Source of the DNA: Squalus acanthias
Taxonomy: Eukaryota
Length of the DNA stretch: 64,000 nucleotides
Assembly (NCBI GenBank): GCA_030390025.1
Contig: CM059432.1
Span: 23,934,001 to 23,998,000, forward strand
Reading direction: 5' to 3'
Part shown: positions 9,786 through 61,935 of the stretch, piece after piece
Numbering within the stretch: the first letter of the stretch is position 1
Layout of the letters: each line of letters starts with the position of its first letter
Made by a program: the position numbers and the translations under genes
Notes under the pieces: generated by a model
What the model was told of the DNA's origin: nothing
Seen by the model: only the letters and a program-made list of their open reading frames with translations
The model's database searches: none

Positions 9786-10190
9786 CATAGAATTACATGG
9801 AATGTACAGCACAGAAACAGGCCATTCGGCCCAACTGGTCCATGCCGGTGTTTATGCTCCATATGAGCCTCCTCCCACCATACTTCATCTAACCCTATCA
9901 AAGTAACCTTCTATTCCTTTCTCCCTCATGTGCTTATCTAGCTTCCCCTTAAATGTATCTATGCTATTCGCTTTAACGACTCCTTGTGGTAGCGAGTTCC
10001 ACATTGTAACCACTCTCTGGGTAAAGAAATTTCTCCCGAATTCCCTATTGGATTCACCCACAAATTTTGAAATTGTACTTTTGATTTCCAAGTCCAAATT
10101 GTTTGTGTAAATAACGAACAACAGTAGTCCCAGCACCAATCCTCGTGGGGCACCACTTCCCATTTTTTACCAGTAACTACCCTTAACCCC
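9786..10190 (-). mobile_element. CR1 fragments (3' end joined to RT segment); continues at 11708-11835
   Basis: ORF 9885-10163: GLVLGLLLFVIYTNNLD...NFFTQRVVTMWNSLP. The RT segment resumes after the Zenon-like LINE and MITE insertions. Confidence 0.85.
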
Positions 10191-10828
10191 AACCACATAA
10201 ATACTGTGGCAACAAGAGCAGGTCAGAGGCTAGGTATTCTGCGGCGAGTGTCTCACCTCCTGACTCCCCAAAGCCTTTCCACCATCTACAAGGCACAAGT
10301 CAGGAGTGTGATGGAATACTCTCCACTTGCTTGGATGATTGCAGCTCCAACAACACTTATGAAGCTCGACATCATCCAGGACAAAGCAGCCCGCTTGATT
10401 GGCAATCCCATCTCCTAGCTTAAACATTCATTCCCTCCACCACCAGCATACCGTGGCTGCAGTGTGTTCCATCTACAAGATGCACTGCAGCAATTCGACA
10501 AGGCTTCTTCGGCAGCACCTCTCAAACTCGCGACCTCTACCACCTAGAAGGACAAGGGCAGCAGGCGCATGGGAACACCACCACCTCCAAATTCCCCTCC
10601 AAGTCACACACCATCCTGACTTGGAAGTGTATCGCCGTTCCTTCGTCGTTGCTGGGTCAAAATCCTGGAACTCCCTCCCTAACAGCACTGTGGGAGTACC
10701 CTCACCACATGGACTGCAGCGGTTCAAGAAGGCGGCTCACCACCACCTTCTCGAGGGCAACTAGGGATGGGCAATAAATGCTGGCATTGCCAGCGATGCC
10801 CACATCCCATGAATGAATTTTAAAAAAC
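10191..10828 (+). mobile_element. Zenon-like CR1-group LINE, 3' fragment
   Basis: RAGQRLGILRRVSHLLTPQSLSTIYKAQVRSVMEYSPLAW...HGLQRFKKAAHHHLL, and 3' UTR gggatgggcaataaatgctgg...cccacatcccatgaatgaa. Confidence 0.85.
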
Positions 10829-10831
10829 TCT

Positions 10832-11704
10832 GGGGGAAAAATTCAGTCGCGCCCCGTTTGGGGCGCAAATATCGGCCGGGCGCAAAAATTAGCGCCTGGC
10901 GCTAATTATCGCCACTGACTGGAAACTTCACTTTTATCGACCCCTGAGGTGATTGGAGCGCTAAATCAGGCGCTTCACACCTGTCTTAAGGCGCAAAGGC
11001 CGAGGAGCGAGGCGCTAACTCAGAGCGCTGGCGAAGCTCATGTGATGTTAGGCAGCAATGGAACACACACTCAATGGCACCGGCCAGTTCTTAAAGGGGA
11101 TGGTTGATCTTGCTTTCCATCCACATCCTGCTCATTGCAGCCTTGAATCCCGGCCTGGAGAGACCTGCACATCAAATCTGCTGGAAAGAACAATGGAGAG
11201 TACCAGGGAAGGAGCTTAGAGTGCAGCCCCAACAGTCTCTTCTAAATCGATACAAGGAATGGCAAATCAAAATGAACCTGCAAAGTGCTGCTCAGTACCC
11301 AAAACTCCTTCACACAATGTTGAATCTCTCCAGATGTCTCTCTCTCTCTCTCTCAGAATGCGTAGTTCAAAAATGGCACCAACACCCTTTAAATAGCGCT
11401 CCCCCAGTCCCTTCATGACTGCAGAACGCTCCCCTCAACCTGTCGTTGCTAGCGTCAGGCGGTAAGGCAGGGGGCGCCACTCAATATCCGCTCCGGGGCG
11501 ATACCGGGGCGTTGCACACTCGACTGACGTCACGATCTGCCGGCGCAGGAGGTCGTGGCGGTAGTGTTTAGCACCGCCGCAAAATGTCTAGTTAATTTCG
11601 CGAGCGGCGCAAACATCGCTGCGCCCGGGCGCTAGCAGCTTTGCGCCCCATTAGCGCCCTCTTAAGGCGCTAACGGGAGGCGCAACCAACTGAATTTTTC
11701 CCCC
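10832..11704. mobile_element. Young CpG-rich MITE (873 bp), probable PIF/Harbinger non-autonomous element
   Basis: Perfect 16-bp TIRs gggggaaaaattcagt / actgaatttttccccc and TSD tct (10829-31, 11705-07). Near-identical copies lie at 21031 and 21541. Confidence 0.92.
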
Positions 11705-11914
11705 TCTTGTGTTTTGTAGCCAGCTTGCTATGCATTCTGCTACCCTGACTTCACATGTTCTGACCTTAGTCATGAGTCTACTATGTGGTGCCTTAGCGAA
11801 GGCCTTTTGAAGATCCAAATATATTACATCTATACTACATAATTCTTTATTTCAATACAGTGATCATGCAGGGAGGAAGAACATTATGAAAGATGGTGAA
11901 TATGCAGTTAGGAA

Positions 11915-12653: not shown

Positions 12654-14480
12654 GAGAACGGCAGCATAGTGGTTATGTTACTGGACTAGTAATCCAGAGG
12701 TCTGGACTAATGATCAAAGCACTGCAGTCCTGCCACATCCAGTCGTGATTGGTGGTGGAGGCTCTATGAACATTCCCATCCTCATTGATGGCAGAGCCCA
12801 GCACATGAGTGCAAAAGACAAGGCTGACGCATTTGCAAATATCTTCAGCCATAAGTGTCGAGTGGCTGATCCATCTCGGCCTACTCCTGAGGTCCCCACC
12901 AGTCTACAGCCAATTTGATTCACTCTACGTGATATCAAGAAACGGCTGAGCGGCTGAACGCACTGGACACAGCAAAGGCTATGGGCCCCGACAACATCCC
13001 GGCTGCAGCGCTGAAGACTTGTGCTCCAGAACTAGTTGCGCCTCCAGTACAGCTACAACACTGGCATCTACCCGGCAAAGTGGAAAATTGCCCAGGTATG
13101 TCCTGTCCACAAAAAGCAGGACAAATCCAATCCAGCCATATACCGCCCCATCAGCCTACTCTCAATCATCAGTAAAGTGATAGAAGGGGCCGTTGACTGA
13201 GCCATCAAGCAGCAATTACTCACCAATATCCTGCTCACCAATGCTAAGTTTGGGTTCCGCCAGGACCACTTGGCTCCAGACCTCATTACAGCCTTGGTCC
13301 AAATATGGACAAATGAGCTGAATTCCACAGGTGAGCTGAGAGTGACTGCACTTGACATCAAGGCAGCATTTGACTGAGTGTGGCTTCAAGGAGCCCTAGT
13401 AAAATTGAAGTCAATGGGAATCAGGGGGAAAATGCTCCACTGGCTGAAGTCATGTGGTTGTTGGAGGCCAATCATCTCAGCCCCAGGACATAGCTGCAGG
13501 AGTTCCTCAGGTCAGTGTCGCAAGCCCAACCATCTTCAGTTGCTTCATCAATGACCTTTCCTCCATCATAAAATCAGAAGTGGGGATGTTCGCTGATGAT
13601 TACACAGTGTTCAGTTCCATTAGCAACTCCTCAGATAATGAAGCAATCCGTACCTGCATGCAGGAAGACCTGGACAACTTTCAGACTTGGGCTGATAAGT
13701 GGCAAGTAACATTCGCACCATACAAGTGTCAGGCAATGACTATCTCCAACTGGAGAGAGTCTAACCACTTCCCCTTGACATTCAACAGCATTACCATTGT
13801 CGAATATCCCACCATCAACATCCTGGGAGTCACCATTGACCAGAAACTTAACTGGACCAGCCACATAAATACCGTGGCAACAAGAGCAGGTCAGAAGCTG
13901 GGCATTCTGCGGTGAGTGACTCCACAAAGCCTTTCCACCATCTGCAAGTCACAAATCTGAAGTCTGACGGAATACTCTCCATTTGCCTGGATGAGTGCAG
14001 CTCCAACAACACTCAAGAAGCTCGCCATCATCCAGGACAATGCAGCCCACTTGATTGGCACCTCACTCACCACCATAAGCATTCACTTCCTCCACCACTG
14101 ACGCATCGTGGCTGCAGTGTGTACCATCTACAAGATGCACTGCAGCAACTCGCCAAAGCTCCTTCGACAGCACCTCTCAAACCCGCGACCTCTACCACCT
14201 AGAAGGACAAGGGCAGCAGGTGCATGGGAACACCACCACCTCCAATTTCCCCTCCAAGTCACACACCATCCTGACTTGGAAATATATTGCCATTCCTTCG
14301 TCGCTGGGTCAAAATCCTGGAACTCGCTCCCTAACAGCACTGTGGGAGTACCTTCACCACACGGACTGCAGCGGTTCAAGAAGGCTGCTCACCACCACCT
14401 TCTCAAGGGCAGTTAGGGATGGGCAATAAATGCTGGCCTTGCCAGCAACTCCACATCCCATGAATGAATTAAATAAAAAT
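12654..14480 (+). mobile_element. Zenon-like LINE with tRNA-like 5' head and internal deletion
   Basis: Head gagaacggcagcatagtggttatgttactggactagtaatccagagg matches the 5' end of 49605-52870. It then jumps at gatc into ORF2. RT motifs are GPDNIP, GVPQ and MFADD, and the family 3' tail is present. Confidence 0.88.
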
Positions 14481-16964: not shown

Positions 16965-17440
16965 AGAACTTGCATTATCGTTTCCTCAGGATGTCCCAAA
17001 ACAACAAATTACTTTTTTAAGTGAGGTCACTGTTATTGTGTCAGCAAATGCAGGAATCATTTTGTTCGCAACAGGGTTCTACAAACAGAAAATCGGTGAA
17101 TGACTAATCGATCCATTATTGGTGGTTTTGGTTGAGGGAGGAATGTTGGACAGGACACAGGGAGAACTCTCTGCTCTTCTTCAAATAGTCCCATAGGATC
17201 ATTTATAGCCACCTAAACTGGCAGATGGAGCATTGGTTTAATGTCGCATCCAAAAAATGGCACCTCCAACAATGCAGCATGTATTCAGTACTGTTCTGCA
17301 GTGGTTCAAGAAGAAGGCCCACCACCACCTTTGTGAGGGCAACTAGGGATGGGCAATAAATTCCACCCTTGCCCTTGACGCCCATATCCCAAGAATGAAT
17401 TTTTAAAAAGCTGTGTCAGCCTAGATGTGGACAGTACCTT
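16965..17440 (-). mobile_element. Old DeuSINE interrupted by a Zenon-like LINE 3' tail (about 17294-17408, plus)
   Basis: Reverse Deu domain at 17160-17280, with insert ctgcagtggttcaagaagaaggcccaccaccacc...gggatgggcaataaa. Confidence 0.7.
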
Positions 17441-21030: not shown

Positions 21031-22821
21031 GGGGGAAAAATTCAGTATCGCCCCGTTTGGGGCGCAATTATCGGCCGGGCGCAAAGATTAGCGCCTGGCG
21101 CTAATTATCGCCTCCGACTGCAAACTTGACTTTTATCGCCCCTGGAGGTGATTGGAGCACTAAATCAGGCGCTACACATCTGTCTTAAGGCGCAAAGGCC
21201 GAGGAGCGAGGCGCTAACTCAGAGCGCTGGCAAAGCTCATGTGATGTCAGTCAGCAATGGAACACACACACAATGGCCCTGGCCAGTTCTTAAAGGGGAG
21301 GGTTGATCTTGCTTTCCATCCACATCCTGCTCATTGCAGCCTTGAATCTCTGCCTGGAGAGACCTGCACATCAAATCTGCTGGAAAGAACAATGGAGAGT
21401 ACCAGGGAAAGAGCTCAGAGTGCAGCCCCCACAGACTCTTCTAAATCGATACAAGGAAGGGCAAATCAAAATGAACCTGCAAAGTGCTGCTCAGTACCCA
21501 AAACTCCTTCACACAGCGTTGAATCTCTCCAGAAGTCTCTGGGGGAAAAATTCAGTCGCGCCCCGTTTGGGGCGCAAATATCGGCCGGGCGCAAAGATTA
21601 GCGCCTGGCGCTAATTATCGCCACCTGACTGCAAACTTGACTTTTATCGCCCCTGGAGGTGATTGCAGCGCTAAATCAGGTGCTTCACACCTGTCTTAAG
21701 GCGCAAAGGCCGAGGAGCGAGGCGCTACCTCAGAGCGCTGGCGAAGCTCATGTAATGTCAGTCAGCAATGGAGCACACACACAATGGCACGGGCCAGTTC
21801 TTAAAGGGGATGGTTAATCTTGCTTTCCATCCACATCCTGCTCATTGCAGCCTTGAATCTCGGCCTAGAGAGACCTGCACATCAAATCTGCTGAAAGAAC
21901 AATGGAGAGTACCAGGCCAAGAGCTCAGAGTGCAGCCCCCACAGTCTCTGCTAAATCGATACAAGGAATGGCAAATCAAAATGAACCTGCAAAGTGCTGC
22001 TCAGTACCCAAAACTCCTTCACACAACGTTGAATCTCTCCAGAAGTCTCTCTCTCTCTCTCTCAGAATGCGTAGTTCAAAAATGGCACCAACAATAAAAG
22101 GCAGGAAGCGGTCACCTTTAAATAGCGCTCCCCCTTTCCCTTCATGACTGCAGAACGCTCCCCTCAACCTGTCGTTGCTAGCGTCAGGCGGTAAGGCAGG
22201 GGGCGCCACTCAATATCCGCTCCGGGGCGATACCGGGGCGTTGCACACTCGAGTGACGTCATGATCTGCCGGCACAGGAGATCGTGGCGGTAGTGTTTAG
22301 TGCCGCCGCAAAATGTCTAGTTAATTTCGCGAGCGGCGCAAACTTCGCCGCGCCCGGGCGCTAGCTGCTTTGCGCCCCATTAGCGCCCTCTTAAGGCGCT
22401 AACGGGAGGCGCAAACAACTGAATTTTTCCCCATCTCTCTCTCTCTCTCTCAGAATGCGTGGTTCAAAAATGTCACCAACAATAAAAGGCAGGAAGCGGT
22501 CGCCTTTAAATAGTGCTCCCCCAGTCCCTTCCTGACTGCAAAACGCTCCCCTCAACCTGTCGTTGCTAGCGGCAGGCGGTAAGGCAGGGGGCGCCACTCA
22601 ATATCCGCTCCGGGGCGCTACCGGGGCATTGTGCACTCAACTGACGTCACGATCTGCCGGTGCAGGAGATCGTGGCGGTAGTGTTTAGCGCTGCCGCAAA
22701 ATGTCTAGTTAATTTCGCGAGCGGCGCAATCATCGCCGCGCCTGGGCGCTAGTTGCTTTGCGCCCCATTAGCGCCCTCTTAAGGTGCTAACGGGAGGTGC
22801 AACCAACTGAATTTTTCCCCC
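21031..22821. mobile_element. CpG-rich MITE copy A (host of copy B)
   Basis: TIRs at 21031 and 22821 with TSD ata (21028-30, 22822-24). Confidence 0.92.
21541..22433. mobile_element. CpG-rich MITE copy B inserted into the (ct)n tract of copy A
   Basis: TIR gggggaaaaattcagt ... actgaatttttcccca and TSD tct (21538-40, 22434-36). Confidence 0.92.
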
Positions 22822-22893
22822 ATAGAGTTATACAGCACAGAAAGAGGCCCTTCGGCCCATCATATCCACACCGGCCATCAAGCCCAGTCTATT

Positions 22894-24390
22894 CTAATCC
22901 CATTTTCCAGCACTTAGTCCGTAGCCTTGTATGCTATGGCGTTTCAAGTGCTCATCTAAATGCTTCTTGAATGTTGTTAGGGTTCCTGCCTCTGCCACCC
23001 TTTCAGGCAGTGAGTTCCAGATTCCAACCACCCTCTGGGTGAAAAAGTTTTCCCTCAAATCCCCTCTAAACCTCCTGCCCCTTACCTTGAAACTATGCCC
23101 CCTGGTTATTGACCCCTCTACTAAGGGGAAAAGTTCCTTTCTATCTACCCTATCTATGCCCCTCATAATTTTGTACACCTCAATCAGGGCCCCCCTCAGC
23201 CTTCTCTGCTCCAAGGAAAACAACCCCAGCCTGTCCAGTCTCTCTTCATAGCTGATGGGCTGCAGCCCAGGTAACATCCTGGTGAATCTCCTCTGCACCC
23301 TCTCCAATGCAATCACATCCTTCCTATAGTGTGGCGACCAGAACTGCACACAGTATTCCAGCTGTGGCCTAACTAGCATTTTGTACAGCTCCATCATAAC
23401 CTCCCTGCTCTTATATTCTATGCCTCGGCTAATGAAGGCAAGTATCCCATATGCCTTTTTAACCACCTTATCTACCTGTCCTGCTGCCTTCAGGGATCTA
23501 TGTACATGCACACCAAGGTCCCTCTGATACTCTGTCCGTCCTAGGGTCCTACCATTCATTGTGTATTCCCTTGCCTTGTTAGTCCTCCCAAAATGCATCA
23601 CCTCACACTTTTCAGGGTTAAATTCCATTTGCCACTGTTCTGCCCATCTAACCAACCCATCTATATCGTCCTGTAGCCTGAGGCTTCCCTCCTCGCTATT
23701 TACCACCCCACCAATTTTCGTGTCATCTGTGAACTTACTGATCATACCTCCTACATTCATATCTAAATCATTAATGTACACTACAAACAGCAAAGGACTC
23801 AGCACTGATCCCTGCGATACACCACTGGACACAGGCTTCCAGTCACAAAAACAACCTTCGACCATCACCATCTGCCTCCTGCCACTAAGCCAATTTTGGA
23901 TCCAATGTGCCAAGTTGCCCTGGATCCCATGGGCTCTTACCTTCTTGACCAGTCTCCCATGTGGGACTTTGTCAAAAGCCTTACTGAAGTCCATGTAGAC
24001 CACATCAACTACACTACCCTCATCCACACACCTAGTCACCCCCTCGAAAAATTCAATCAAATTGGTCAGACATGATCTCCCCCTGACAAAGCCATGCTGA
24101 CTATCCTTGATTAATCCTTGCCTCTCCAAGTGGAGTCTAATTCTGTCCCTCAGAATGTTTTCCAATAATTTCCCTACCACTGATGTTAGGCTCACTAGCC
24201 TGTAATTCCCTGGTTTATTCCTACTACCCTTCTTGAATAATGGTACTACGTTAGCTGTTCTCCAGTCCTCTGGCACCTCCCCTGTGGCCAGAGAGGTTCT
24301 GAAAATTTGTGTTAGAGCCCCTGCAATCTCTTCCCTTGCCTCACACAGCAGCCTGGGATACATCACATCTAGGCTTGGGGATTTATCCAC
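22894..24390 (-). CDS. CR1 ORF2 reverse transcriptase portion (498 aa open; upstream part frameshifted; catalytic motif reads FTDD)
   Basis: NYRLVSLTSV, QHGF, DFSKAFDKVPH, GVSQGSVLSP, KFTDDTK, LEYCVQFWSP. Confidence 0.9.
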   Translation of the reverse strand: MDKSPSLDVMYPRLLCEAREEIAGALTQIFRTSLATGEVPEDWRTANVVPLFKKGSRNKPGNYRLVSLTSVVGKLLENILRDRIRLHLERQGLIKDSQHGFVRGRSCLTNLIEFFEGVTRCVDEGSVVDVVYMDFSKAFDKVPHGRLVKKVRAHGIQGNLAHWIQNWLSGRRQMVMVEGCFCDWKPVSSGVSQGSVLSPLLFVVYINDLDMNVGGMISKFTDDTKIGGVVNSEEGSLRLQDDIDGLVRWAEQWQMEFNPEKCEVMHFGRTNKAREYTMNGRTLGRTEYQRDLGVHVHRSLKAAGQVDKVVKKAYGILAFISRGIEYKSREVMMELYKMLVRPQLEYCVQFWSPHYRKDVIALERVQRRFTRMLPGLQPISYEERLDRLGLFSLEQRRLRGALIEVYKIMRGIDRVDRKELFPLVEGSITRGHSFKVRGRRFRGDLRENFFTQRVVGIWNSLPERVAEAGTLTTFKKHLDEHLKRHSIQGYGLSAGKWD

Positions 24391-27204: not shown

Positions 27205-28320
27205 GTCCTACACTTAATTTACTCCCTTTAAATTAAAGAATATTAAATACACTAGGGACCTTACTTCCCTTTAAACACTACTTCTAAACTAGAGACCTTA
27301 CTTTTACTTTAATGACTGGAATGTAGAAATACTGTAGAAATACTCACCGCTGGTTCTCTGTCCCCTCTTGTGCAGCTTTTTAGCTCCTGCTGTCCTGGAA
27401 GCTGACAAAGATGGAAAAAGAAAGTAACACCTCCCTCCCCGAACTCCCTCACTCACCAAACTCGCAGCTTAACACTCTGTTCCGATCTGCACTCCGTGAC
27501 AAACTGCACTCTAGCCTGATATTGATATATATTAATGACCTGGGCTTGGTATACAGGGCATAATTTCAAAGTTTGCAGATGACACAAAGCTTGAAACTGT
27601 AGTAAACAGTAAGGATGCTCGCAACAGACTTCAGGAGGACATTAGTGAAATTGGCAAACACATGGCAGATGCAATTCAACGCAGAGAAGTGTGAAGTCAT
27701 GCATTTTGGTAGGAAGGATGAGGAGAGGCAATATAAATTAAATGGTACAATTTTAAAGGAGATGCGGGAACAGAGAGACCTGGGGGTGTATGTACACAAA
27801 TGATTGAAGGTGGCAGGACAAGTTGAGAAGGCAGTTAAAAAACATACTGGATCTTTGGCTTTATAAACAGAGGCATATAAGCAATGAAGTTATGCTAAAC
27901 CTTTACAAACCACTGGTTAGTCCCCAGCTGGAGTATTTTGTTCAATTCTGGGCACCACACTTTAGGAAAGATGTAACAAGGCCTTTTTAGCAAGGCCTTG
28001 TAGAGGGGGCAAAGGAAATTTATTAGAATAGTACCAGGGATGCGGGGCTTCAGTTACATGGATAGAAGCTGGGGTTGTTCTTCTGAGAACAAAGAAGGTT
28101 AAGGGAAGAATTAATAGAGATGTTCAAAATCATGAAGGGGTTTGATAGAGTAAATAAGGAGAAACTGTTTCCAGTGACAGAAGAGTCAGTAACCAAAGGA
28201 CACAGATTTAAAATAACTAGCAAAACAACCAGAGGCGAAAGAGGAGAATTTTTTTTTATGCAGCGAGTTGTTATGATCTGGATGGCACTACCTGAAAGGG
28301 TGGTGGAAGCAGATTCAATA

Positions 28321-29113
28321 ATAATGCATTTGGGGAGTGCTAACAAGAAAGGGAATACACATTAAATGGTAGGACACTGAGTAGTGTAGAGGAACAAAGG
28401 GACCTTGGAGTGCATGTCCACAAATCCCTGAAGGTAGCAGGCCAGGCAGATAAGGTGGTTAAGAAGGCATACGGAATGCTTGCCTTTATTAGCCGTGGCA
28501 TAGAATACAAGAGCAGGGGCGGTTATGCTTCAACTGTATAAAGCACTAGTTAGGCCTCAGCTAGAGTACTGCATGCAGTTCTGGTCACCACATTACAGGA
28601 AAGATGTGATTGCACTAGAGAGGGTACAGAGGAGATTTACAAGGATGTTGCCGGGAGTAGAGAATTTTAGCTGTGAGGTAAAACTGGATAGGCTGGGTTT
28701 GTTTTCCTTGAAACAGAGGAGGCTGAGGGGAGACCTTATTGAGGTGTATAAAATTATGAGGGGCCTAGATAAAGTGGATAGAAAGGACCTATTTCCCTTA
28801 GCAGAGGGGTCAAAAACCAGGGGCACAGATTTAAAGTAATTGGTGGAAGGTTTAGAGGGGATTTGAGGGGAAATTTCTTCACCCAGAGGGTTGTGGGGGT
28901 CTGGAACTCACTGCCTCAAAGGGTGGTAGAGGCAGAAAACCTAACCACATTTAAAAAGTACTTGGACGTGCACTTGGGATGCTGTAACCTGCAGGGCTAC
29001 GGACCAAGAGCTGGGAAGTGGGATTAGGCTGGATAGCTCTTTGTTGGCCGGCGCGGACACAATGGGCCGAAATGGCCTCCTTCCGTGCTGTAACTTTCTA
29101 TGATTCTATGATT
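28321..29113 (+). mobile_element. CR1 3' fragment nested in the host CR1
   Basis: ORF 28525-28839 LYKALVRPQLEYCMQFWSPHY, (tatgattc)n tail, and taataa at both junctions. Confidence 0.9.
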
Positions 29114-33139: not shown

Positions 33140-33850
33140 GTACCAAGTTAGTTGATTTCAGTCAGAGCAACAGTTGAGGTACTACAATTAGCTTCAGTAA
33201 CCTTAGTCTGGTTTGGAGCAAATACCAACAAGGCTCCTGCTGCTGTTGATACTGTTGACCCAGTGCAAAATGTGCACAAGTATGTCAGGTGAGAGCAAGT
33301 CTGGGCCCAGCTGTGGTGCTTCTCATCATCTTTTAGATGAGACTTTAGACCGAGGCCCTGTCTGCTCTCTCAGGTGAACGTAGAAGATCCCATGGCACTA
33401 TCTTGAAGAAGAGCAGGGGGAGTCCTGGTCAATATTTATCCCTCAATCAACATCACTAAAAAAAACAGATTATCTAGTCACTAACTTCTCAAGGGCAACT
33501 AGGGATGGGCAATAAATGCTGGCCTTGCCAGCGACGCCCACATCCCATAAACAAATTAAAAAAAAATTATCACATTGCTGTTTGTGGGAGCTTGCAGTGT
33601 GCAAATTGGCTGCCGTGTTTCCTACATTTCAACAGTGACTACACTTCAAAAGTACTTCATTGGCTGTAAAGTGCTTTGGGATGTCCTGAGGTTGCGAAAG
33701 GCGCTATTTCTTTCTAGGCTGCTGACACACATTGTTTAGACGCATACATTAAGAATGTTCACTTCAGCCTGTACGTGACAGCAACCTGTTCTTTTGACAC
33801 AAACCTGAGTCACTGCCTTCAGGGGAGAGAGAAATTGGAGAGGGAAAAAA
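33140..33850 (+). mobile_element. AmnSINE2-like SINE interrupted by a DeuSINE (about 33330-33715), itself interrupted by a Zenon-like tail (about 33485-33568)
   Basis: Motifs of each family resume correctly after each insert. Confidence 0.65.
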
Positions 33851-36774: not shown

Positions 36775-36960
36775 CAGTCAGCATCCAAAAGAGTGAAGAC
36801 AGACTAACTTTCGGGTGGCGATCCTTTGTCAGAACTGTTACGTTGCAAAGTCTTGGCCTGAAATTTTAACTTATATTTTTTTTCTTTCAGATATGGACTG
36901 ACCTGTTGTGTATTTCCAATCTTTCCTGTTTTTATTTCAGATTTTGGGAATGCGAAGTTT
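36775..36960. mobile_element. Old Penelope-like inverted terminal-repeat pair
   Basis: Diverged versions of the 6211/48085 repeat occur in both orientations, with a hammerhead-like core on minus at about 36805-36835. Confidence 0.45.
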
Positions 36961-47496: not shown

Positions 47497-48320
47497 TCTT
47501 TGTGGCTGTACTGATTGATGCCACCAGGCCTGTCCTGGCAGCGAAATCAGTGTTTGAGGACTGTTTGATGAGGGTTCTAGTTCAGGCATGGATCTGATTG
47601 GAGCGCAGTTCGGCTGCCAAGCGTATATTGCTGAGAAGGAAAGGAGTCATGAACCAAGTGTGCAAGGGATAGCCCTTGTCGACAAGCAGCCGACCCCTCA
47701 CTTGTGATGTAGGGCAAAGAGTGGGGAGATGGAAGATTGCCACAATGTCAAACCATCATGACAGATGCCAGGAAAGTGGGCGCATGATGTGCTGCTGGTG
47801 ATTTCACACCAGTTGCGCTTTAATGAGGCGATGAAGTCGAATCTATTCATGAAAGCAGTGGGCACGTCTGAGGGAGCCTGTAGTGTAACATGGACGCCGT
47901 CAATAAGACCCTGAAATTTGGGGAAGCCAAATTTGGGGAATTGACGCAAAAATGGCATTGGGAGTCCTGGCAATATCAGTTGACGCCTGTTTGAATATTT
48001 TAATTGGGCTCCTTCCTGTTTCCAGTGGAAGTGCTGGCTGGCTAAATCGAGGCTCCAGCAGTAAGTCAACAGTGTATTTCTTTTACCAAAGCAAAATACT
48101 GCGGATGCTGGAAATCTGAAATAAAAACAGAAAATGCTGGAAATACTCAGCAGGTCAGGCAGCATCAAATGCTGCCTGACCTGCTGAGTATTTCCAGCAT
48201 TTTCTGTTCTTATTTTAGTGTATTTCTTTTTCCCGATTGGCATCTCACTACCATGCCCTGTACAGGTGTAAACGAGGCTGCAGTGAGACGAAAATCGAGT
48301 ATCCACAGGCTATTTGACCA
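47497..48320 (-). pseudogene. Harbinger DDE transposase (DDE_Tnp_4-like), catalytic core, decayed
   Basis: GFPKFQGLIDGVHV, CAHFPGICHD, GRLLVDKGYPLHTWFMTP, and FRCQDRPGGINQYS. Confidence 0.88.
48085..48216. mobile_element. Palindromic Penelope-like insertion
   Basis: Arms 48116-48165 / 48169-48218 with loop caa. Flanking 14-bp direct repeat agtgtatttctttt (48071-84, 48217-30). Confidence 0.65.
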
Positions 48321-49604
48321 TGGTGGGAGGTGCAGAGGCTTGTTCTGTTCTCACCCAACATCCACATACTCGCACTTGCCACAAGAAATGAATTGTTTGT
48401 GATCAAAAGTGAGAACGCTGGCTGATTTTTCCCTTTCTTAGTATGAAAGCGATAGTGTTACTGTGACTGAAAACAGCGAACTCACCACAGACAGGACGTC
48501 AAAACTGATCTCTACAGCCTTGTTCTATAGCCTAGACTTACCATCTGCTCTATTGGGGGACAAAAGGCATTCATACAATGACAGACGTCTCTAATTAACA
48601 TTGGCAAATAAGCAAATGTTAGGGATGTAGTTCTACAATGAATACTGGCGTGGATGGCATAACAAGATGGAGTTTGATTGGGAAAACATCATTCAGTTCC
48701 TACTTGAGACTTGAAATTAGCAAACCAAATAAGCAAAACCTCATTGTCCAGCAACTGAAATGTCACTATAAGAAGTTAATCTTGAAAGTTGTGGTCTTAT
48801 CTTTTATTTTGTTTGAGAAGGTATTAACATTTAAAAACTGCTGAATTGCCAGGAATCTGTATATAGCAGACTATTTTTTATAAAGCCTGTGATAAGGTTA
48901 ATTTATCAGCTTCAAAATGTCTCTGAAAAAAATGGAATCATGTTAAAACATAACAATGTCAGGATTTTTAGGAATAGGAAAAGGCTGATAGGTCCAACAA
49001 GCCTGTCCCTTGTTGCTGGATCAGTTTTAATGGCTGGTACATCATTGTGGGGATATTGGGGACCCAGCTGAATTCTTGACATGTGCTCCTGGTGGGCACG
49101 GCTCCTCATTGTACAGATGAGTACAAATTCAAAATATTACCCCTTGTGCCTCTCAATCTCTCTCTCTTCAGAAGCCGACTTAATCTTCTCTTGAATGCAT
49201 TTGTACTGTCTACATCATTGCTCTTCTCTGCTATCTTATTCCACAAGCCTGTGACCCTTTAGTTTTAAATTTATGAAAATTAGTTTAAAGCCATCAAATT
49301 CACAAAATAAATTGTCAAATTTAATAAGAGGTTACAGTTATGCCATAGTAGTTCAGCATTAACCGACTTGCTGATTATAAATTTACAGTTGAGATCAGTG
49401 TCTGAGATTGATCTAATCTGATTAATTTAGAATTAGACTCCTTAGATATCTGACAAGTTAATAGCATTAGATAGCCAACTTATTGGATAGATTAAAGTCT
49501 CTGCGCTCGTAGCTAGCAATGTTTTCAGAACTTAGATGACCTCATCCTTATGAGTTTGCATAGTTTAGCTGGTTGCCTTGCCTTCCACTGGAATAAATGT
49601 TTTT

Positions 49605-52600
49605 TTTATATTTGTTCATGGGATGTTGGGCATCGCTGGCAAGGCCAGCATTTTATGCCCATCCCTAATTGCCCTTGAGAAGGTGGTGGTGAGCCGCTTT
49701 CTTGAACCGCTGCAGTCCGTGTGGTGAAGGTATTCCCACAGTGCTGTTAGGGAGGGAGTTCCAGGATTTTGACCCAGCGACGATGAAGGAATGGCGATAT
49801 ACTTCCAAGTCAGGATGGTGTGTGACTTGGAGGGGAACTTGGAGGTGGTGGTGTTCCCATGCATCTGCTGCCCTTGTCCTTCTAGGTGGTAGAGGTCGCG
49901 GGTTTGGGAGGTGCTGCCGAAGAAGCCTTGGTGAATTGCTGCAATGCATCTTGTAGATGGTACACACTGCAGCCACGGTACGCCGGTGGTGGAGGGAGTG
50001 AATGTTTAAGGTGGTGGATAGGGTGCCAATCAAGCGGGCTGCTTTATCTTGGATGGTGTTGAGCTTCTTGAGTGTTGTTGGAGCTACACTCATCCAGGCA
50101 AGTGGAGAGTATTCCATCACACTCCTGACTTGTGCCTTGTAGATGGTGGAAAGGCTTTGGGGAGTCAAGAGGTGAGACACTCGCTACAGAATACCCAGCC
50201 TCTGACATGCTGTTTTTGCCACGGTATTTATGTGGCTGGTCCAGTTAAGTTTCTGGTCAATGGTGACCACTCTGGATATTGATGGTGGGGGATTCGGCGA
50301 TGGTAATGCCATGAATGTCAAGGGACAGTGGTTAGACACTTGCTTGTTGGTGATAGTCATTGTCTGGCACTTGTGTAGCGCGAATGTTACCTGCCACTTA
50401 TCAGCCCAAGCCTGAATGTCGTCCAGGTCTTGCTGCATGCGGGCATGGACTGCTTCATTATCTGAGGAGTTGCGAATGGCACCGAACACTGTGCAGTCAT
50501 CAGCGAACATCCCCACTTCTGACGTTATGATGGCGGGAAGGTCATTGATGAAGCAGATGAAGATGGTTGGGCCTAGGACACTGCCCTGAGGAACTCCTGC
50601 AGCAATGTCCTAGGGCTGTGATGATTGACCTTCAACCACCACAACCATCTCCTTTGTGCTAGGTACGGCTCCAGCCAGTGGAGAGTTTTCTCCCCGATTC
50701 CCATTGACTTCAGTTTTACTAGGGCTCCTTGATGCCAGACTCGGTCAAATGATGTTCTTGATGTCAAGGGCAGTCACTCTCACCTCACCTCTGGAATTCA
50801 TCTCTTTTGTCCATGTTTGGACCAAGGCTGTAATAAGGTCGGGAGCCGAGTTGTCCTGGCGGAACCCAAACTGGTCATCAGTGAGCAGGTTATTGGTGAG
50901 TACGTGCTGCTTGATAGCACTGTCGACGGCACCTTCCATCACTTTGCTGTTGATTGAGAGTAGACTGATGTGGCGGTAATTGGCCAATTGGATTTGTCCT
51001 GCTTTTTGTGGACAGGACATACTTGGGCATTTTTCCACATTATCGGATAGATGCCAGTGTTATAGCTGTACTGGAACAGCTTGACTAGAGGTGTGGCTAG
51101 TTCTGGAGCACAAGTCTTCAGCACGACAGCCGGGATGTTGTCGGGGCCCACAGCCTTTGCCGTATCCAGTGCGCTCAGCCGTTTCTTGATATCACGTGGA
51201 GTGAATTGAATTGGCTGGCTTCTGTGCTGGTGGAGACCTCAGAAGGAGGCCGATATGGATCATCCACTCAGCACTTCTGGCTGAAGATCGTTGCAAATGC
51301 TTCAGCTTTGTCTTTTACACTCACGTGCTAGGCTCCACCATCATTGAGGATGGGGATATTCATGGAGCCTCCTCCTCCCGTTAGTTGTTTAATGATCCAC
51401 CAACATTCACGACTGGATGTGGCAGGACTGCAGAGCTTTGATCTGACCCACTGATTGTGGGATCGCTTAGCTCTGTCTATAGCATGCTGCGTCCAATTTT
51501 AAGCATGTATGTAGTCCTGTGTTGCAGCTTCCCCAGGTTGGCATTGCATTTTTAGGTACACCTGGTGCTGCTCCTGGCATGCTCTTCTACACTCCTTATT
51601 GAACCAGGGTTAATCTCCTGACTTGATGGTAATGGTAGAGTGAGGGATATGCCGGGCTATGAGATTACAGATTGTGGTGGAATACAATTCTGCTGCTGCT
51701 GATGGCCCACAACACCTCATGGATGCCCAGTTTTGAGCTGCTAGATCTGTTCTGAATCTATCCCATTTAGCACGGTGGTAGTGCCACACAACACGATGGA
51801 GAGTGTCCTCAGTGTGAAGACGGGACTTCGTCTCCACAATGACTGTGTGGTGGTCACTGCTACCAATGCTGTCATGGACAGATGCATCTGCGACAGGGAG
51901 ATTGGTGAGGACGAGGTCAAGTCGGTTTTTCCCTCGTGTTGGTTCTCTCACCACCTGTCGCAGGCCCAAACTGGCAGCTATGTCCTTCAGGACTCGGCCA
52001 GCTTGGTCAGTAGTGGTGCTACCGAGCCACTCTAGGTGATGGACATTGAAGTTCCCCAACCAGAGTAAATTCTGTGCCCTTGCTACTCTCAGTGCTACTT
52101 CCAAGTGGTCTTCAACATGGAGGAGTACTGATTCATCAGCTGAGGGAGGCTTAGGTGGTAATCAGCAGGAGGTTTCCTTGCCCATGCTTGGCCTGAAGCC
52201 ATGAAACTTGGGGTCCGGAGTCAATGTTGAGGACTCTCAGGGTCACTCCTTCGCAACTGTATACCACTGTGTCACCACCCCTGGTGGGTCTGCCCGGCCG
52301 GTGGGACAGGACATACCCAGGGATGGTGATGGAGGAGTTTGGGACATTGGCTGAAAGGTTTTGATTCTGTCAGGCTGTTGCTTGACTAGTCTGTGGGACA
52401 GCTCTCCCAATTTTGGCAAAAGTCCCCAGATGTTGGTGAGGAGGACTTTGCAGGGTCGACTGGGCTGGGTGTGCCGTTGTCGTGTCCGTAGCCGGTGCCG
52501 GGTGGTCCGTCCAGTTTTATTCTTATTGTTTTTCGTAGCGTTTTCTTTACAATTGAGTGGCTTGCTAGGCCATTTCAGAGGGCAGTTAAGAGTCAACCAC

Positions 52601-52870
52601 ATTGCTGTGTGTCTGGAGTCACATAGGCTAGACCAGGTAAGGTTGGCAGATTTCCTTCCCTAAAGGACATTGGTGAACTAGATGGGTTTTTACAACAATC
52701 CGATAGTTTCATGGTCACCATTACTGATACTAGCTTTTTATTCCCGATTTATTTAATTGAATTTAAATTCCCCAGCTGTCTTGGTGAGATTTGAACTCAC
52801 ATCTCCAGATCATTAATGCAGGTCTCTGGATTACTAGTACCAGTAACATGACCACAATGCTACTGTTCCC
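49605..52870 (-). mobile_element. Apparently full-length Zenon-like LINE: tRNA-like head plus single frameshifted APE-RT ORF
   Basis: Head gggaacagtagcattgtggtcatgttactgg...gagttcaaatctcacc. APE: VLLTNIWGLLPKL, GNFNVHH, LDLVLTN, SDH. RT: GPDNIP, QFGFRQ, MFADD. Family 3' tail present. Confidence 0.9.
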
Positions 52871-53743
52871 GTTTGATAGGCTTCTGAGATGTTAGTGTGA
52901 TGAACTTCCGTCTTTAGCGGTGCTATCCATTCTTCTTGGAACCTCTGCTCCTATCTTCCACACTTGGACCCGTATCTGGACTATCTGGCTTAATTCTCAG
53001 CTCCCTTGTTCTCAGGGAAACTTGTATATTTAAGTGACGCACTTATATCAGTCTGTATCTGGCTGGTACAGCCCTACAATGTAATTTCTGCAACCTCTCT
53101 CTGTCTGTTGGAGCTGCACTTTCATCTTATTACATATACTAAACAAAGAACTACTACCAAACTATGACAATGAGTACTGCAAGAACTACTAAGAGAACAA
53201 GAAACAAGAACAAACTTTTTGTGTCCAAACTACTATCTTATATATCCTTGATTTTCAAAGTAACCGCAGTTTAATTGACAAATCTGAGTGACACATGTGT
53301 TAGGAGCGTTCACCCCTTTTGGTGTCAATTACCTGAAATAGCCATGTTTACTACCCCTGATGATCTCAGGTGAATGCCGCATCAGAACCTAGACATGCCA
53401 GGTGAGAATTTCACTCACGTAACTTATCAGCTTCTTTTCAACAAAGTGGTTTGCACTCTTTCAGATAAGAAGTGACATATTTATACCTCTTAATAGGTCT
53501 AAGAACATACATAAGAACATAAGAAATAGGAGCAGGAGTAGGCCAATCGGCCCCTCGAGCCTGCTCCGCCATTCAATAAGATCATGGCTGATCTGATCCT
53601 AACCGCCAATCTACTATCTACTATCACAGAACCATCTCCTGCATCTAACAGAATTGCACACATGAAATAGGAGCAGAATCAGGCTACACGGTCCCTGGGC
53701 CCGCTCCACTACCCACAGGGCCATGACCGATCCGAACCTAGAC

Positions 53744-56695
53744 TCATGTCCAAATTCCTGCCCGCTCCCCGTAACCCTTAATGCCCTTTACTTCTAGGAA
53801 ACTGTCTATTTCTGTTTTAAATTTATTTAATGATGTAGCTTCTACAGCTTTTTGTGGCAGCATATTCCATGGGCCTACCACCCTCTGAGTGAAGTAGTTC
53901 CTCCTCATCTCAGTTTTGAAAGAGCAGCCCTTTATTCTAAGACTATGTCCCCTAGTTCTAGTCTCACCCGTCATCGGGAACATCCTCCCCGCATCCACCC
54001 GATCCAACCCCTTCATAATCTTATATGTTTCAATAAGATCGCCTCTCATTCTTCTGAACTCCAATGAGTAGAGTCCCAATCTACACAACCTCTCCTCATA
54101 TGACCACCCCCTCATCCCCGGGATTAACCGAGTGAACCTTTTTTGCACTGCCTCGAGAGCAAGGATGTCTTTCCTTAAGTAAGGACACCAAAACTGTATG
54201 CAGTATTCCAGGTGCGGTCTCACCAATACCTTGTACAACTGAAGCAATACCTCCCTATTTTTATATTCTATCCCCCTAGCAATGAAAGCCAACATTCCAT
54301 TTGCCTTCTTAATCACTTGCTGCACCTGCATACTAACCTTTTGAGTTTTGTGCACCAGGACCCCCAGATCCCTTTGCACTTCAGTACTCTCCAGTTTCTT
54401 GCCATTAAGATAATAAATTGCTCTAGGATTTTTCCTGCCAAAGTGCATCACCTCACACTTTCCAGTGTTGTATTCCATCTGCCAAATCTCTGCCCACTTA
54501 CTTAGCCTGTCTATGTCCCCTTGCAGGTTTTTTATGTCCTCCTCACTCACTACTTTCCCTCCCATCTTAGTATCATCTGCAAATTTTGATATGTTACACT
54601 TGGTCCCTTCCTCCAAATCGTTAATATAGATTGTAAAGAGTTGGGGACCCAGCACTGACCCCTGTGGAACACCACTAGTTACTGATTGCCAGTCTGAGAA
54701 TGAACCATTTATCACAACTCTTTGCTTTCTGTTAGATAGCCAATCCTCTATCCATGCCAGAATATTACCCCCAATCCCGTGATTTTTTACCTTAAGCAAT
54801 AATCTTTTGTGTGGCACCTTGTCAAATGCCTTTTGGAAGTCTAAATACACTACGTCCACTGGTTCCCCTTTATCCACTCTATATGTTACTTCCTCAAAGA
54901 ACTCCAGCAAATTTGTCAAACATGACTTCCCCTTCGTAAAACCATGCTGACTTTGTCCTATTAAATTATGATTATCCAAATGTCCTGTTACTGTTTCCTT
55001 AATAATGGACTCCAAAATTTTACCTACCACAGATGTTAGGCTAACCGGTCTATAGTTACCAGCCTTCTGTCTACTGCCCTTTTTAAATAAGGGTGTTACA
55101 TTAGCAGTTTTCCAGTCTGCCGGGACCTTAGCGGAATCCAGGGAGTTTTGAAAAATTATTACCAATGCATCTACAATCCCTACCGCCACTTCCTTCAAGA
55201 CTCTAGGATGTAAGCCATCAGGTCCAGGTGATTTATCTGCCTTGAGTCCCATTATTTTACCGAGTACCACTTCCTTAGTGATTTTGATCGTGTTTAGCTC
55301 CTCTCCCCCTATAGCCCCCTGTTTGTCCAGTGTTGGGATATTCTTAGTGTCCTCTCCTGTAAAGACTGATACAAAATATTCATTCAGTGTTTTTGCCATC
55401 TCCATATTTCCCACCATTAATTTCCCGGTCTCATCCTCTAAGGGACCAACATTTACTTTAGCCACCCTTTTTCTTTTTATATAACTATAAAAACTCTTAC
55501 TATCTGTTTTTATATTTTTTGCTAATTTACTTTCATAATCTATCTTCCCTTTCTTAATCAATCTTTTTGTTATTTTTTGCTGACTTTTAAAGTTTTCCCA
55601 ATCCTCTGTCCTCCCACTAGATTTCGCTACCTTATATGCCCTTGTTTTTAGTCGAATACTATCCTTACTTTCTTTACTTAGCCACGGATGACTGTCCTTT
55701 CTTTTACACCCTTTTCTTTTCAGTGGAATATATATTTTTTGGAAGTTGTAAAATAACTCCTTGAATGTACACCACTGATCATGTATCGTCTTACCCTTTA
55801 ATCTATTTTCCCAATCCACTCTACTCAATTCCGCTCGCATACCTTCATAGTCTCCTTTATTCAAGCTTAGCACGCTTGTTTGAGATCCAAACTTCTCACC
55901 CTCTAATTGAATATGGAATTCAACCATGTTATGGTCACTCATTCCAAGGGGATCCTTTACTAGGACATTTTTAATTAATCCTGTCTCGTTACACAGGACC
56001 AGATCTAAGGTTGCTTGCCCCCTGGTCAGTTCAGTTACATACTGCTCAAGAAACCCATCCCTAATACACTCAATGAACTCATCCTCAAGGCAGCCCTGCC
56101 CCATTTGATTTGTCCAATTAATATGATAGTTAAAATCCCCCATAATTATAGATGTTCCCTTATTACATGCCTCAACTATTTCCTGATTGATACTCCGTCC
56201 AACAGAGTTGCAACTGTTCGGAGGCCTATAGACTACGCCCACTAGTGTTTTTTTCCCCTTATTATTCCTTATGTCCACCCAAACTGTTTCATTATCATGA
56301 TTTTTTGACCCAATATCATTACTCTGTATTACAGTGATTCCTTCCTTTATTAACATAGCCACCCCACCTCCCCTTCCTTCCTGCCTGTCCTTCCTGATCG
56401 TTAAATAACCTGGTATGTTTAATTCCCAGGCATTGTCACCCTGCAGCCATGTTTCTGTAATGGCCACAATATCATAACCATATGTAGTTATTTGTGCCAT
56501 TAACTCATCTATTTTGTTACGAATGCTACGTGCATTCAGATAGAGAACTTTCAAATATGCTTTGTGGCACTTGGTTCCTGCTTTTTCACTTTTTACCACT
56601 TTACCTTTTACTCCACACACTCTGTCCCTTCCTGCCACGCTCTGATCTGTGATTCCCCTACTGCTACCTATGTCTATGACCCTCTCTGTTGTCAT
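53744..56695 (-). CDS. CR1 ORF2 endonuclease/reverse transcriptase, uninterrupted 983 aa
   Basis: APE: YLNARSI, ITETWL, YRPP, GDFN, LDLVL, SDH. RT: PGPDG, NYRPVSLTS, QHGF, DFQKAFDKV, GVPQGSVLGP, FADDTK. Confidence 0.96.
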   Translation of the reverse strand: MTTERVIDIGSSRGITDQSVAGRDRVCGVKGKVVKSEKAGTKCHKAYLKVLYLNARSIRNKIDELMAQITTYGYDIVAITETWLQGDNAWELNIPGYLTIRKDRQEGRGGGVAMLIKEGITVIQSNDIGSKNHDNETVWVDIRNNKGKKTLVGVVYRPPNSCNSVGRSINQEIVEACNKGTSIIMGDFNYHINWTNQMGQGCLEDEFIECIRDGFLEQYVTELTRGQATLDLVLCNETGLIKNVLVKDPLGMSDHNMVEFHIQLEGEKFGSQTSVLSLNKGDYEGMRAELSRVDWENRLKGKTIHDQWCTFKELFYNFQKIYIPLKRKGCKRKDSHPWLSKESKDSIRLKTRAYKVAKSSGRTEDWENFKSQQKITKRLIKKGKIDYESKLAKNIKTDSKSFYSYIKRKRVAKVNVGPLEDETGKLMVGNMEMAKTLNEYFVSVFTGEDTKNIPTLDKQGAIGGEELNTIKITKEVVLGKIMGLKADKSPGPDGLHPRVLKEVAVGIVDALVIIFQNSLDSAKVPADWKTANVTPLFKKGSRQKAGNYRPVSLTSVVGKILESIIKETVTGHLDNHNLIGQSQHGFTKGKSCLTNLLEFFEEVTYRVDKGEPVDVVYLDFQKAFDKVPHKRLLLKVKNHGIGGNILAWIEDWLSNRKQRVVINGSFSDWQSVTSGVPQGSVLGPQLFTIYINDLEEGTKCNISKFADDTKMGGKVVSEEDIKNLQGDIDRLSKWAEIWQMEYNTGKCEVMHFGRKNPRAIYYLNGKKLESTEVQRDLGVLVHKTQKVSMQVQQVIKKANGMLAFIARGIEYKNREVLLQLYKVLVRPHLEYCIQFWCPYLRKDILALEAVQKRFTRLIPGMRGWSYEERLCRLGLYSLEFRRMRGDLIETYKIMKGLDRVDAGRMFPMTGETRTRGHSLRIKGCSFKTEMRRNYFTQRVVGPWNMLPQKAVEATSLNKFKTEIDSFLEVKGIKGYGERAGIWT

Positions 56696-56733
56696 TTTTA
56701 TTTTTTGCTCTCTTGAAACCTCCCCCCCACTAA

Positions 56734-57261
56734 TTAGTTTAAAGCCCTCTCTACAGCCCTAGTTATTCGATTCGCCAGGACACTAGTCCCAGCACTGGCC
56801 AAGTGAAGTCCGTCCCAACGGAACAGCTCTCTCCTGCCCCAGGACTGGTGCCAGTGTCCCAAGAAGCAAAATCCATTTTTCCCACACCAGTCTTTGAGCC
56901 ACGCATTCAACTCCCTGATTTTATTTACCCTAGCCAAATTTGCTCTTGGCTCAGGTAGTAATCCAGAGATTATTACCCTCGAGGTTCTGCTTTTTAATTT
57001 GGCCCCTAGCTGCTCAAACTCCCTCAGCAGAACCTCTTTCCTTGTCCTATCTATGTCATTGGTACCAATATAGACCACGACAACTGGATCCTCCCCCTCC
57101 CACTCCAAGTTTCTCTCCAGCCCAGAGGAGATGTCGTTAACCCTGGCACCGGGCAGGCAACACAGCCTTCGGGACTCTCGCTCTTGGCTGCAAAGAACCC
57201 TATCTATCCCCCTAATGATACTATCCCCTACCACTACAACATTTCTTTTTACTCCCCCCAC
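56734..57261 (-). CDS. CR1 ORF1 SGNH-esterase domain (5'-truncated)
   Basis: VVVGDSIIRG, LPGARVND, IGTND, DGLHL. Confidence 0.88.
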   Translation of the reverse strand: MGGVKRNVVVVGDSIIRGIDRVLCSQERESRRLCCLPGARVNDISSGLERNLEWEGEDPVVVVYIGTNDIDRTRKEVLLREFEQLGAKLKSRTSRVIISGLLPEPRANLARVNKIRELNAWLKDWCGKNGFCFLGHWHQSWGRRELFRWDGLHLASAGTSVLANRITRAVERALN

Positions 57262-61588: not shown

Positions 61589-61935
61589 TTTTTTTAAATT
61601 CAATCCGGGATATGGGCGTCGCTGACAAGGCCAGCATTTATTGCCCATCCCTAATTGCCCTTGAGAAGGTGGTGGTGAGCCACCTTCTTGAACCGCTGCA
61701 ATCCGTGTGGTGAAGGTACTCCCACAGTGCTTTTAGGGAGGAAGTTCCAGGAGTTTGACCCAGCGATGATGAAGGATCGGCGATATATTTCTAAGTCAGG
61801 ATGGTGTGTGGCTTGGAGGGGAACTTGGAGGTGGTGGTGTTCCCATGAGCCTGCTGCCCTTGTCCTTCTAGGTGGAAGAAGCTGCGGGTTTGTGAGCTGA
61901 GAACTCATTCTGCATGCAGCCACAGCACAATGGTG
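61589..61935 (-). mobile_element. Zenon-like LINE 3' fragment
   Basis: HGLQRFKKVAHHHLLKGN and family 3' UTR. Confidence 0.88.

Follow-up and report, generated by a model that had tools for sequence, protein, structure and literature searches.

Can a long interspersed nuclear element (LINE) of the autonomous type begin with the tRNA-derived promoter head of a short interspersed nuclear element (SINE)? This question is raised by a 64,000-nt stretch of the dogfish Squalus acanthias (assembly GCA_030390025.1, contig CM059432.1, positions 23,934,001 to 23,998,000; hereafter the window), in which an initial annotation had described a SINE-LINE hybrid with a tRNA-like head and no first open reading frame (ORF1). 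The element, designated copy A (Table 1), occupies 3,270 nt of the minus strand (52870→49601) and represents a decayed copy of the elasmobranch Zenon LINE of the CR1 group. Sequence comparison places this head at the genuine 5' end of the entire family, a LINE of autonomous type that encodes apurinic/apyrimidinic endonuclease (APE) and reverse transcriptase (RT) domains. The hybrid description stood as regards a tRNA-type head on an APE-RT LINE, which extends to the whole family, while the family and its lack of ORF1 had already been published. What appears to be new here is an unremarked, lineage-wide SINE-type promoter head, together with a SINE-sized derivative, on a known LINE family.

The position of the head was examined in seven published elasmobranch Zenon consensuses (CarCar, HypSab, RhiTyp, ScyCan and SquAca_Zenon-1, -2 and -3; 2,886-3,314 nt), which represent white shark, whale shark, catshark, dogfish (three consensuses) and stingray, that is, four sharks and one ray. 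Published consensuses were compared over the first 400 nt of each. All seven begin at the head: the A box is exact and starts at nt 6-11, the same body and lead-in follow, and a canonical B box was observed in six. The common 5' terminus of full-length copies anticipated by the initial annotation was found in these consensuses of five species. Neither an extension of the head into an ORF1-bearing untranslated region (UTR) nor a junction confined to the two copies of the window was seen, the head-LINE arrangement being present in the seven consensuses and the body-to-LINE link in a gene model of Heterodontus (P0002). The consensuses were extended from RT seeds with an extra round of 5' extension (Stuart et al. 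2026, PMC13343379; this and the other PMC and bioRxiv sources were available in part, and statements about them refer to those parts); in five genomes, therefore, the extension arrived at the head from the coding side. Six B-box 10-mers, searched in the first 400 nt of 1,003 CR1-group rows, matched 6 rows, all of them elasmobranch Zenon; other box variants or 5'-incomplete consensuses could hide further cases. The three Zenon consensuses of hagfish and coelacanth have unrelated 5' ends with TTTT runs, and none of the seven elasmobranch consensuses shows TTTT in the visible 400 nt (both by eye). Because the hagfish and coelacanth Zenon and the lepidopteran Zenon-derived SIDE lack the head, it looks like an acquisition of elasmobranchs, and one that would predate the shark-ray split, roughly 270-300 million years ago.

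The first base of copy A coincides with that of SquAca_Zenon-1, and copy A matches the published elasmobranch Zenon consensuses across the visible 400 nt, the SquAca type being the closest (both by eye). Four motifs of the window gave 11 matches in five rows of the published CR1-group table, all elasmobranch Zenon. Pfam detected Exo_endo_phos_2 (E 1.5e-9) and RVT_1 (E 9.1e-14) in a single ORF, whose frame is interrupted by stop codons, shifts and small deletions. From the first base to the first APE motif (VLLTNIWGL, beginning at 52446) there are 424 nt, with no space for an ORF1, as the initial annotation had recognized. Its picture of a body of about 200 bp running straight into APE had to be revised, since this interval comprises a body of about 230 nt, an A-rich linker of about 35 nt and an Arg-rich lead-in of about 75 nt. 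Copy A also departs from canonical vertebrate CR1 in its lack of ORF1, its A tail and an RT only 36-39% identical to the CR1 copies of the window.

The nearest proteins were found in the sharks Heptranchias and Heterodontus, and the Heterodontus model P0002 runs from the body peptide (WLTL..PLKW) into APE, providing an independent link between body and ORF. The same model joins immunoglobulin V-type domains to the element body and APE, which is probably a prediction artefact. In distant protein relatives (35-40% identity), the same first APE motif is preceded by short and mostly basic leaders. The 79-aa lead-in, used as a protein query, yielded nothing among four candidates, pattern searches of genome contigs and viral contigs gave no matches, a viral RT scan confirmed none of 20 candidates, and a metagenome scan returned a single locus with bacterial polysaccharide-type genes, a chance match.

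By its sequence, copy A belongs to the known elasmobranch Zenon family. Zenon elements of sharks and rays have been described as universally lacking ORF1 and bearing poly(A) tails, a tail unique to Zenon among CR1-group elements (Stuart et al. 2026, PMC13343379). In the available text, the main article and its preprint contain no mention of tRNA, promoter or polymerase, and the main article, which gives the consensuses, does not discuss the head, its boxes, the scarcity of T runs or the short form. No description of this head was found in published text beyond a sentence on RTE-1_DAn (see below), Repbase, Dfam and SINEBase lying outside the search; the head is undescribed in the available text of PMC5499810, PMC7245038, PMC4824008, PMC3747384, PMC4494074, PMC1845163, PMC2746220 and bioRxiv 10.1101/443036.

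The initial annotation of a tRNA-like start was borne out in copy A. The A-box-like motif TAGCATTGTGG (52862-52852) shows one mismatch to the A-box consensus, and the B box GTTCAAATC starts at 52796, 66 nt after the start of the A box. Five A+B box pairs were identified in the window, against zero or one each (two in total) in eight block-shuffled windows. The Rfam tRNA model matched 52852-52777 weakly (18.6 bits, E 0.34, under the gathering score of 29) and ARAGORN found no tRNA gene, so this is a degenerate tRNA-like head and not a tRNA gene. Its long A-B spacing with an extra hairpin presumably recalls tRNAs with a long variable arm. The remaining four A/B pairs (4793 and 9227 on the plus strand, 25388 and 3702 on the minus strand) apparently belong to three or more kinds of ordinary tRNA-derived SINE. 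By BLAST, none of these four heads resembles the Zenon head, and self-BLAST of the window matched the Zenon head and body to no other SINE copy.

Contigs from four DNA-type runs of four organisms (four of the 24 runs listed) were aligned to the element. Only cover, boundary and joints were used, and no ranking of head, ORF and tail was drawn from contig depth; 15 of 10,233 joints and 40 of 490 variant rows were listed. Cover is unbroken from head to tail in all four runs and drops beyond 52887 from 1e5-1e6 to about 1e2, about hundredfold or more, in each of them. Among the 15 joints listed, five connect 52548-52571 to 49676-49697, each in all four runs and with at most 50 letters on the short side, and no other joint occurs in more than one run. 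These joints indicate a recurrent short form of about 400 nt, composed of head, body and tail and possibly of several kinds, in line with the head-and-tail elements suggested in the initial annotation. Since it carries both the A and the B box, the short form qualifies as a SINE. It is also short and non-coding, as far as it is inferred from the joints, which the 3.27-kb APE-RT element is not.

The coding strand of Zenon is nearly free of TTTT, with a single run in the 5,985 nt of copies A-D (the last 12-20 nt, which form the tail, being excluded from all T-run counts). This run lies in copy A and is private to it, as 97-99% of contig depth at 52419 represents another base in all four runs; copies B-D have none outside their tails. 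The control, a canonical CR1-type copy of the same window (53747-56758, minus strand) with a stop-free frame of 1,004 codons, has eight TTTT runs in 2,767 nt. The CR1 regions at 22831-24308 and 27569-29092, of mixed or unchecked orientation, were left out of the T-run conclusions. Phenylalanine codons in Zenon are skewed away from TTT (TTT:TTC 2:15, compared with 64:97 over the remaining two-fold codons; Fisher P 0.032), whereas the CR1 control shows no skew (19:14 against 110:57; P 0.43), and the odds of the TT dinucleotide are 0.79-0.86 in Zenon and 1.06 in CR1. The Zenon sequence is compatible with RNA polymerase III (Pol III) read-through, and selection for such read-through is suggested. 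The CR1 control itself represents a young or intact ORF2, and the sequence upstream of it, to about 57350, may be its ORF1 region.

The start of the ORF is unusual. The A-rich linker sets the APE frame in three different phases across the consensuses (codon counting by eye) and is not coding, because its phase to that frame differs between them. The APE frame extends back to AUG-GCC-UAG in three species and elsewhere lacks a nearby upstream AUG (by eye). A conserved AUG is found just past the linker, with about 28 codons between it and the first APE motif that follows; the relative P0007 starts at this place. In the row that shows both, this AUG lies one base out of the APE frame (by eye). An upstream ORF start at 52602 was rejected, being in the APE frame in copy A and not in the consensuses. 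Translation of the Zenon ORF probably begins at a non-standard start, as an uncapped RNA would need.

At the 3' end, a stem-loop forms the only significant fold of the element (z -2.56; 2 of 200 shuffles as good), and by analogy this stem-loop and the A tail may be the recognition signal of the RT. All six copies in the window (A-F) end in A-rich tails, and AATAAA occurs about 40 nt ahead of the tail in five of them. A T run of one to five bases precedes the A tail (one in copy A, two in B and E, three in D, four in C and five in F; e.g. 10815-10827 and 17398-17409); most run contigs show a single T there, and the variation may be decay of the tail. The T run and AATAAA together recall polyadenylated Pol III SINEs, for which AATAAA-dependent polyadenylation of the RNA has been described (Vassetzky 2021, PMC8466645). 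A second set of repeat ends (53508, 7830, 24968 and others), considered as candidate heads, was rejected, as these are the 3' tails of ordinary CR1.

The reading that we favour, with somewhat better than an even chance, is that an autonomous LINE has captured, and makes use of, a Pol III promoter of the SINE type, that its protein acts in cis, and that deletion yields SINE-type progeny. Before the shark-ray split, the original Zenon 5' end would have been replaced by a tRNA-derived SINE-type head, probably through template switching of the RT or fusion with a SINE, and this head would then have been retained as the internal promoter of the element. TFIIIC would bind the A and B boxes, and Pol III would start a few bases before the A box, at the first base of the element, and pass through the nearly TTTT-free coding strand to produce one 3.3-kb RNA. 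This uncapped RNA would be translated from a non-standard start, aided by the conserved body, and the APE-RT protein would bind the 3' stem-loop in cis for target-primed reverse transcription. Loss of the middle part would leave the element of about 400 nt with head, body and tail, in effect a SINE. Pol III use, the mode of translation, the origin of the head and the direction of the LINE-SINE relation are in this scheme what we infer from sequence features. More tentatively, at just short of an even chance, the tRNA-headed Zenon LINE may have been stable since before the shark-ray split and may give rise to true SINEs by plain internal deletion, without capture of a head.

Several observations weigh against use of the head by Pol III. 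The B box of the stingray consensus is one base short, and no in-frame AUG ahead of APE is conserved among the elasmobranch consensuses (by eye). The TTTT deficit reaches P ~0.04 only when mononucleotides are shuffled, and is not significant when dinucleotides (P 0.25 and 0.10) or synonymous codons (P 0.49, or 0.26 with Phe reset) are shuffled. Copy A is poor in CCCC runs as well (6 against 15.9), so low T content and a general avoidance of runs may explain part of the deficit, and one CR1 copy likewise falls below its shuffles for TTTT (3 against 7.75, P 0.035). An internal terminator marking the 3' end is missing in most copies, with contig loose ends at 49627. Furthermore, non-LTR (long terminal repeat) elements are described as transcribed by RNA polymerase II (Pol II) and SINEs, of 100-700 bp, by Pol III, whose elements are short (Kojima 2024, PMC10886601).

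The alternative that survives best, although we consider it unlikely, accepts the captured head as the 5' end and assigns the full-length mRNA to Pol II, either through a promoter in the body or with TFIIIC only opening the chromatin, the boxes persisting for the short form or for accessory transcription. It is favoured by the general status of LINEs as Pol II units (PMC10886601) and by the weakness of the T-run deficit under the stricter nulls. The body, whose last ~150 nt look nearly invariant across the five species (by eye), also appears more conserved than the head, and a capped RNA would ease translation. However, transcription from a promoter downstream of the head would still have to begin at the head's first base in order to regenerate the head, this base lies at a SINE-like distance from the A box in all seven consensuses, and the boxes are exact in the LINE consensuses too and not in the short form alone. 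The AATAAA ahead of the tail fits a Pol II transcript, but AATAAA-dependent polyadenylation is known on Pol III SINE RNA as well (PMC8466645).

A division of labour is improbable in our view. Here the Pol III RNA would serve as template only, and the protein would come from capped host read-through transcripts and act partly in trans. The lack of a conserved in-frame AUG, with the sole conserved AUG after the linker one base off the APE frame, agrees with this possibility, as do the intronic location of 39% of the whale-shark CR1-Zenon-like sequence (bioRxiv 10.1101/443036) and the rarity of intact ORFs (0/2313, 3/612, 1/1419, 1/294, 0/59 and 0/396). On the other hand, intronic copies are normally spliced out, few intact ORFs are expected of an old family, and the long retention of the APE-RT frame in the headed form would imply selection in cis.

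Still less probable is that the head acts as an RNA processing signal, through RNase P-type cleavage of host read-through transcripts that sets the exact 5' end, comparable to the ribozymes resembling that of hepatitis delta virus (HDV) in R2, RTE and Ingi. LINEs without ORF1 often have 5' processing signals (PMC5786205), and the anticodon-arm and variable-arm hairpins of the head are retained, their stems differing between dogfish and the remaining sharks (by eye). The dogfish-type head carries its anticodon-like hairpin twice in tandem (52816-52838 region), while the heads of white shark, whale shark and catshark carry a different second hairpin, and the stem changes look compensatory (by eye). 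The acceptor stem is unpaired, the T stem is partial and the boxes are exact (by eye on the consensuses), and shuffles fold as well as the head does (z -0.14), which favours a DNA promoter over a tRNA fold or RNase P substrate. The body (z +1.44) and the lead-in (z -0.11) likewise fold no better than shuffles, and an Rfam ribozyme search of 52500-53000 in the decayed copy A gave no match at E up to 10.

That the head belongs to an adjacent SINE, or is an artefact produced by two chimeric copies or by the building of consensuses, is largely refuted and very hard to believe: copy B alone could be a chimera, none of the contig pieces listed extends from head to APE, and there is a SINE that shares this head and tail, but the same junction is found in five independently curated genomes, in the gene model of a sixth species (P0002) and in copy A, and two contigs of run X4 bridge the A-rich linker (joint 52480-52548).

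Copy B had been taken in the initial annotation as a sign that the head is not a chance neighbour. The similarity of copies A and B does start at about the same base, with unrelated upstream flanks, and 12656-12715 of copy B matches 52868-52808 of copy A at 85% (E 2.5e-12). Copy B lacks the B box, body and APE, and a GATC microhomology joins its head to LINE position 51443. With only about 60 nt of head and this microhomology join, copy B alone may be a template-switch chimera and is no proof of a family-wide head.

The features of copy A and the other copies are collected in Table 1. Copy E sits inside another short repeat (33329-33707), whose halves flank it; because copy E splits this repeat copy, its insertion is the younger of the two. 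An unclassified repeat with a period of about 510 nt (91-95% identical) is arranged in tandem at 21031-22821 and was also observed at 10828-11707, directly after copy C. Short matches of 50-85 nt (87-92%, one of them inverted) at 48084-48215, 6214-6298 and 36898-36944 possibly represent a palindromic or simple repeat.

Table 1. Zenon features and copies identified in the window.
Feature	Coordinates	Strand	Evidence
Copy A, near-full-length decayed elasmobranch Zenon LINE, 3,270 nt	49601..52870	-	Self-comparison; frames; first base of SquAca_Zenon-1; contig cover drop beyond 52887
tRNA-like head with putative internal type-2 Pol III promoter boxes; long A-B spacing, extra hairpin	52777..52870	-	Weak Rfam tRNA score; box scan; 7/7 elasmobranch consensuses
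A box TAGCATTGTGG, 1 mismatch in copy A; exact in 7/7 consensuses, starting nt 6-11	52852..52862	-	Box scan and consensuses
B box GTTCAAATC; canonical in 6/7 consensuses	52788..52796	-	Box scan and B-box search
Conserved 5'-UTR body, common to LINE and short form	52550..52776	-	By eye on consensuses; exact motif matches; Heterodontus P0002
A-rich linker, variable length	52512..52549	-	Loose ends at 52548 (run X8); joint 52480-52548 (run X4); codon counting by eye
APE endonuclease domain preceded by Arg-rich lead-in; in copy A, frameshifts plus a deletion near 52359	51841..52521	-	Pfam; translation; loose end at 52359
Sole TTTT run of copy A coding strand, private to copy A	52418..52421	-	Sequence; contig depth at 52419
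Rest of the single ORF (linker, reverse transcriptase, C-terminal region), to stop TAG 49667-49665	49665..51840	-	RVT_1 on 50600-50343
3' stem-loop and A tail, common to LINE and short form	49601..49667	-	Fold statistic; six window copies aligned
Copy B, first ~60 nt of head joined to 3' 1.77 kb of LINE (internal deletion or template switch)	12654..14478	+	BLAST; junction inspection
Copy C, 5'-truncated	10189..10827	+	91% (BLAST)
Copy D, 5'-truncated	61589..61899	-	89% (BLAST)
Copy E, tail only	33479..33565	+	90% (BLAST)
Copy F, tail only, diverged	17296..17409	+	76% (BLAST)

Reviews state flatly that LINEs are coding and transcribed by Pol II, and SINEs non-coding and transcribed by Pol III (PMC5786205, PMC10886601). 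A long-lived vertebrate LINE with a SINE promoter would, if confirmed, break this division. It would be a coding Pol III unit of 3.3 kb found in nature, with the attendant question of how an uncapped RNA is translated, and would offer a direct route from LINE to SINE and a possible source of some SINE bodies. Should Pol III use fail, what remains is a structural feature, real though unremarked, in an abundant LINE of sharks and rays, and the elasmobranch Zenon consensuses are already public.

Among known systems, the published elasmobranch Zenon elements (PMC13343379) agree with copy A in first base, head, body, lead-in, length (about 3.3 kb), lack of ORF1, poly(A) tail and the presence of APE and RT. 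In the lepidopteran Zenon/SIDE Persaeus (Wang et al. 2019, PMC6740152), the Zenon lineage has likewise produced short 5'-plus-3' derivatives repeatedly, through microhomology deletions. Unlike the shark short form, which carries both boxes, Persaeus includes the Zenon 5' end and is described there as lacking tRNA, 5S or 7SL homology and a Pol III promoter. RTE-1_DAn and elements related to it are autonomous LINEs with a tRNA-like sequence that matches many SINE2, as described in one sentence (Kojima 2018, PMC5786205); they belong to the RTE clade, unlike Zenon, and the available text does not describe the position, boxes or function of that sequence. RTE-1_DAn is a partial precedent, and a tRNA-type head on a LINE may not be unique.

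The short form also resembles the bipartite-LINE SINEs (Bov-tA, AfroSINE, SINE2-1_ACar and CoeSINE4; PMC5786205), which combine a tRNA head with a 5' and a 3' part of a LINE. These SINEs, for which RTE and Vingi were the only contributors found, gain their head on a LINE that is non-coding and has already undergone deletion, whereas the Zenon head stands on a full-length coding element. The shark SINEs HE1 (V-SINE), SacSINE1 (Deu-SINE) and the CmiSINEs share tRNA heads with A and B boxes and the same hosts (PMC5499810, PMC3747384); they are set apart by their descriptions, in which the reported partners are HER1/CR1 and L2. An internal promoter of Pol III type, as proposed for Zenon, is also used by TRIMp3 (Cassandra, Helenus and Ajax; PMC10886601), which unlike Zenon are short, non-coding LTR elements.

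Finally, R2 resembles the proposed Zenon in being a single-ORF LINE made outside Pol II with an uncapped RNA. R2 is translated from this uncapped RNA. Unlike Zenon, it rides on the transcription of ribosomal DNA and excises itself with a ribozyme.

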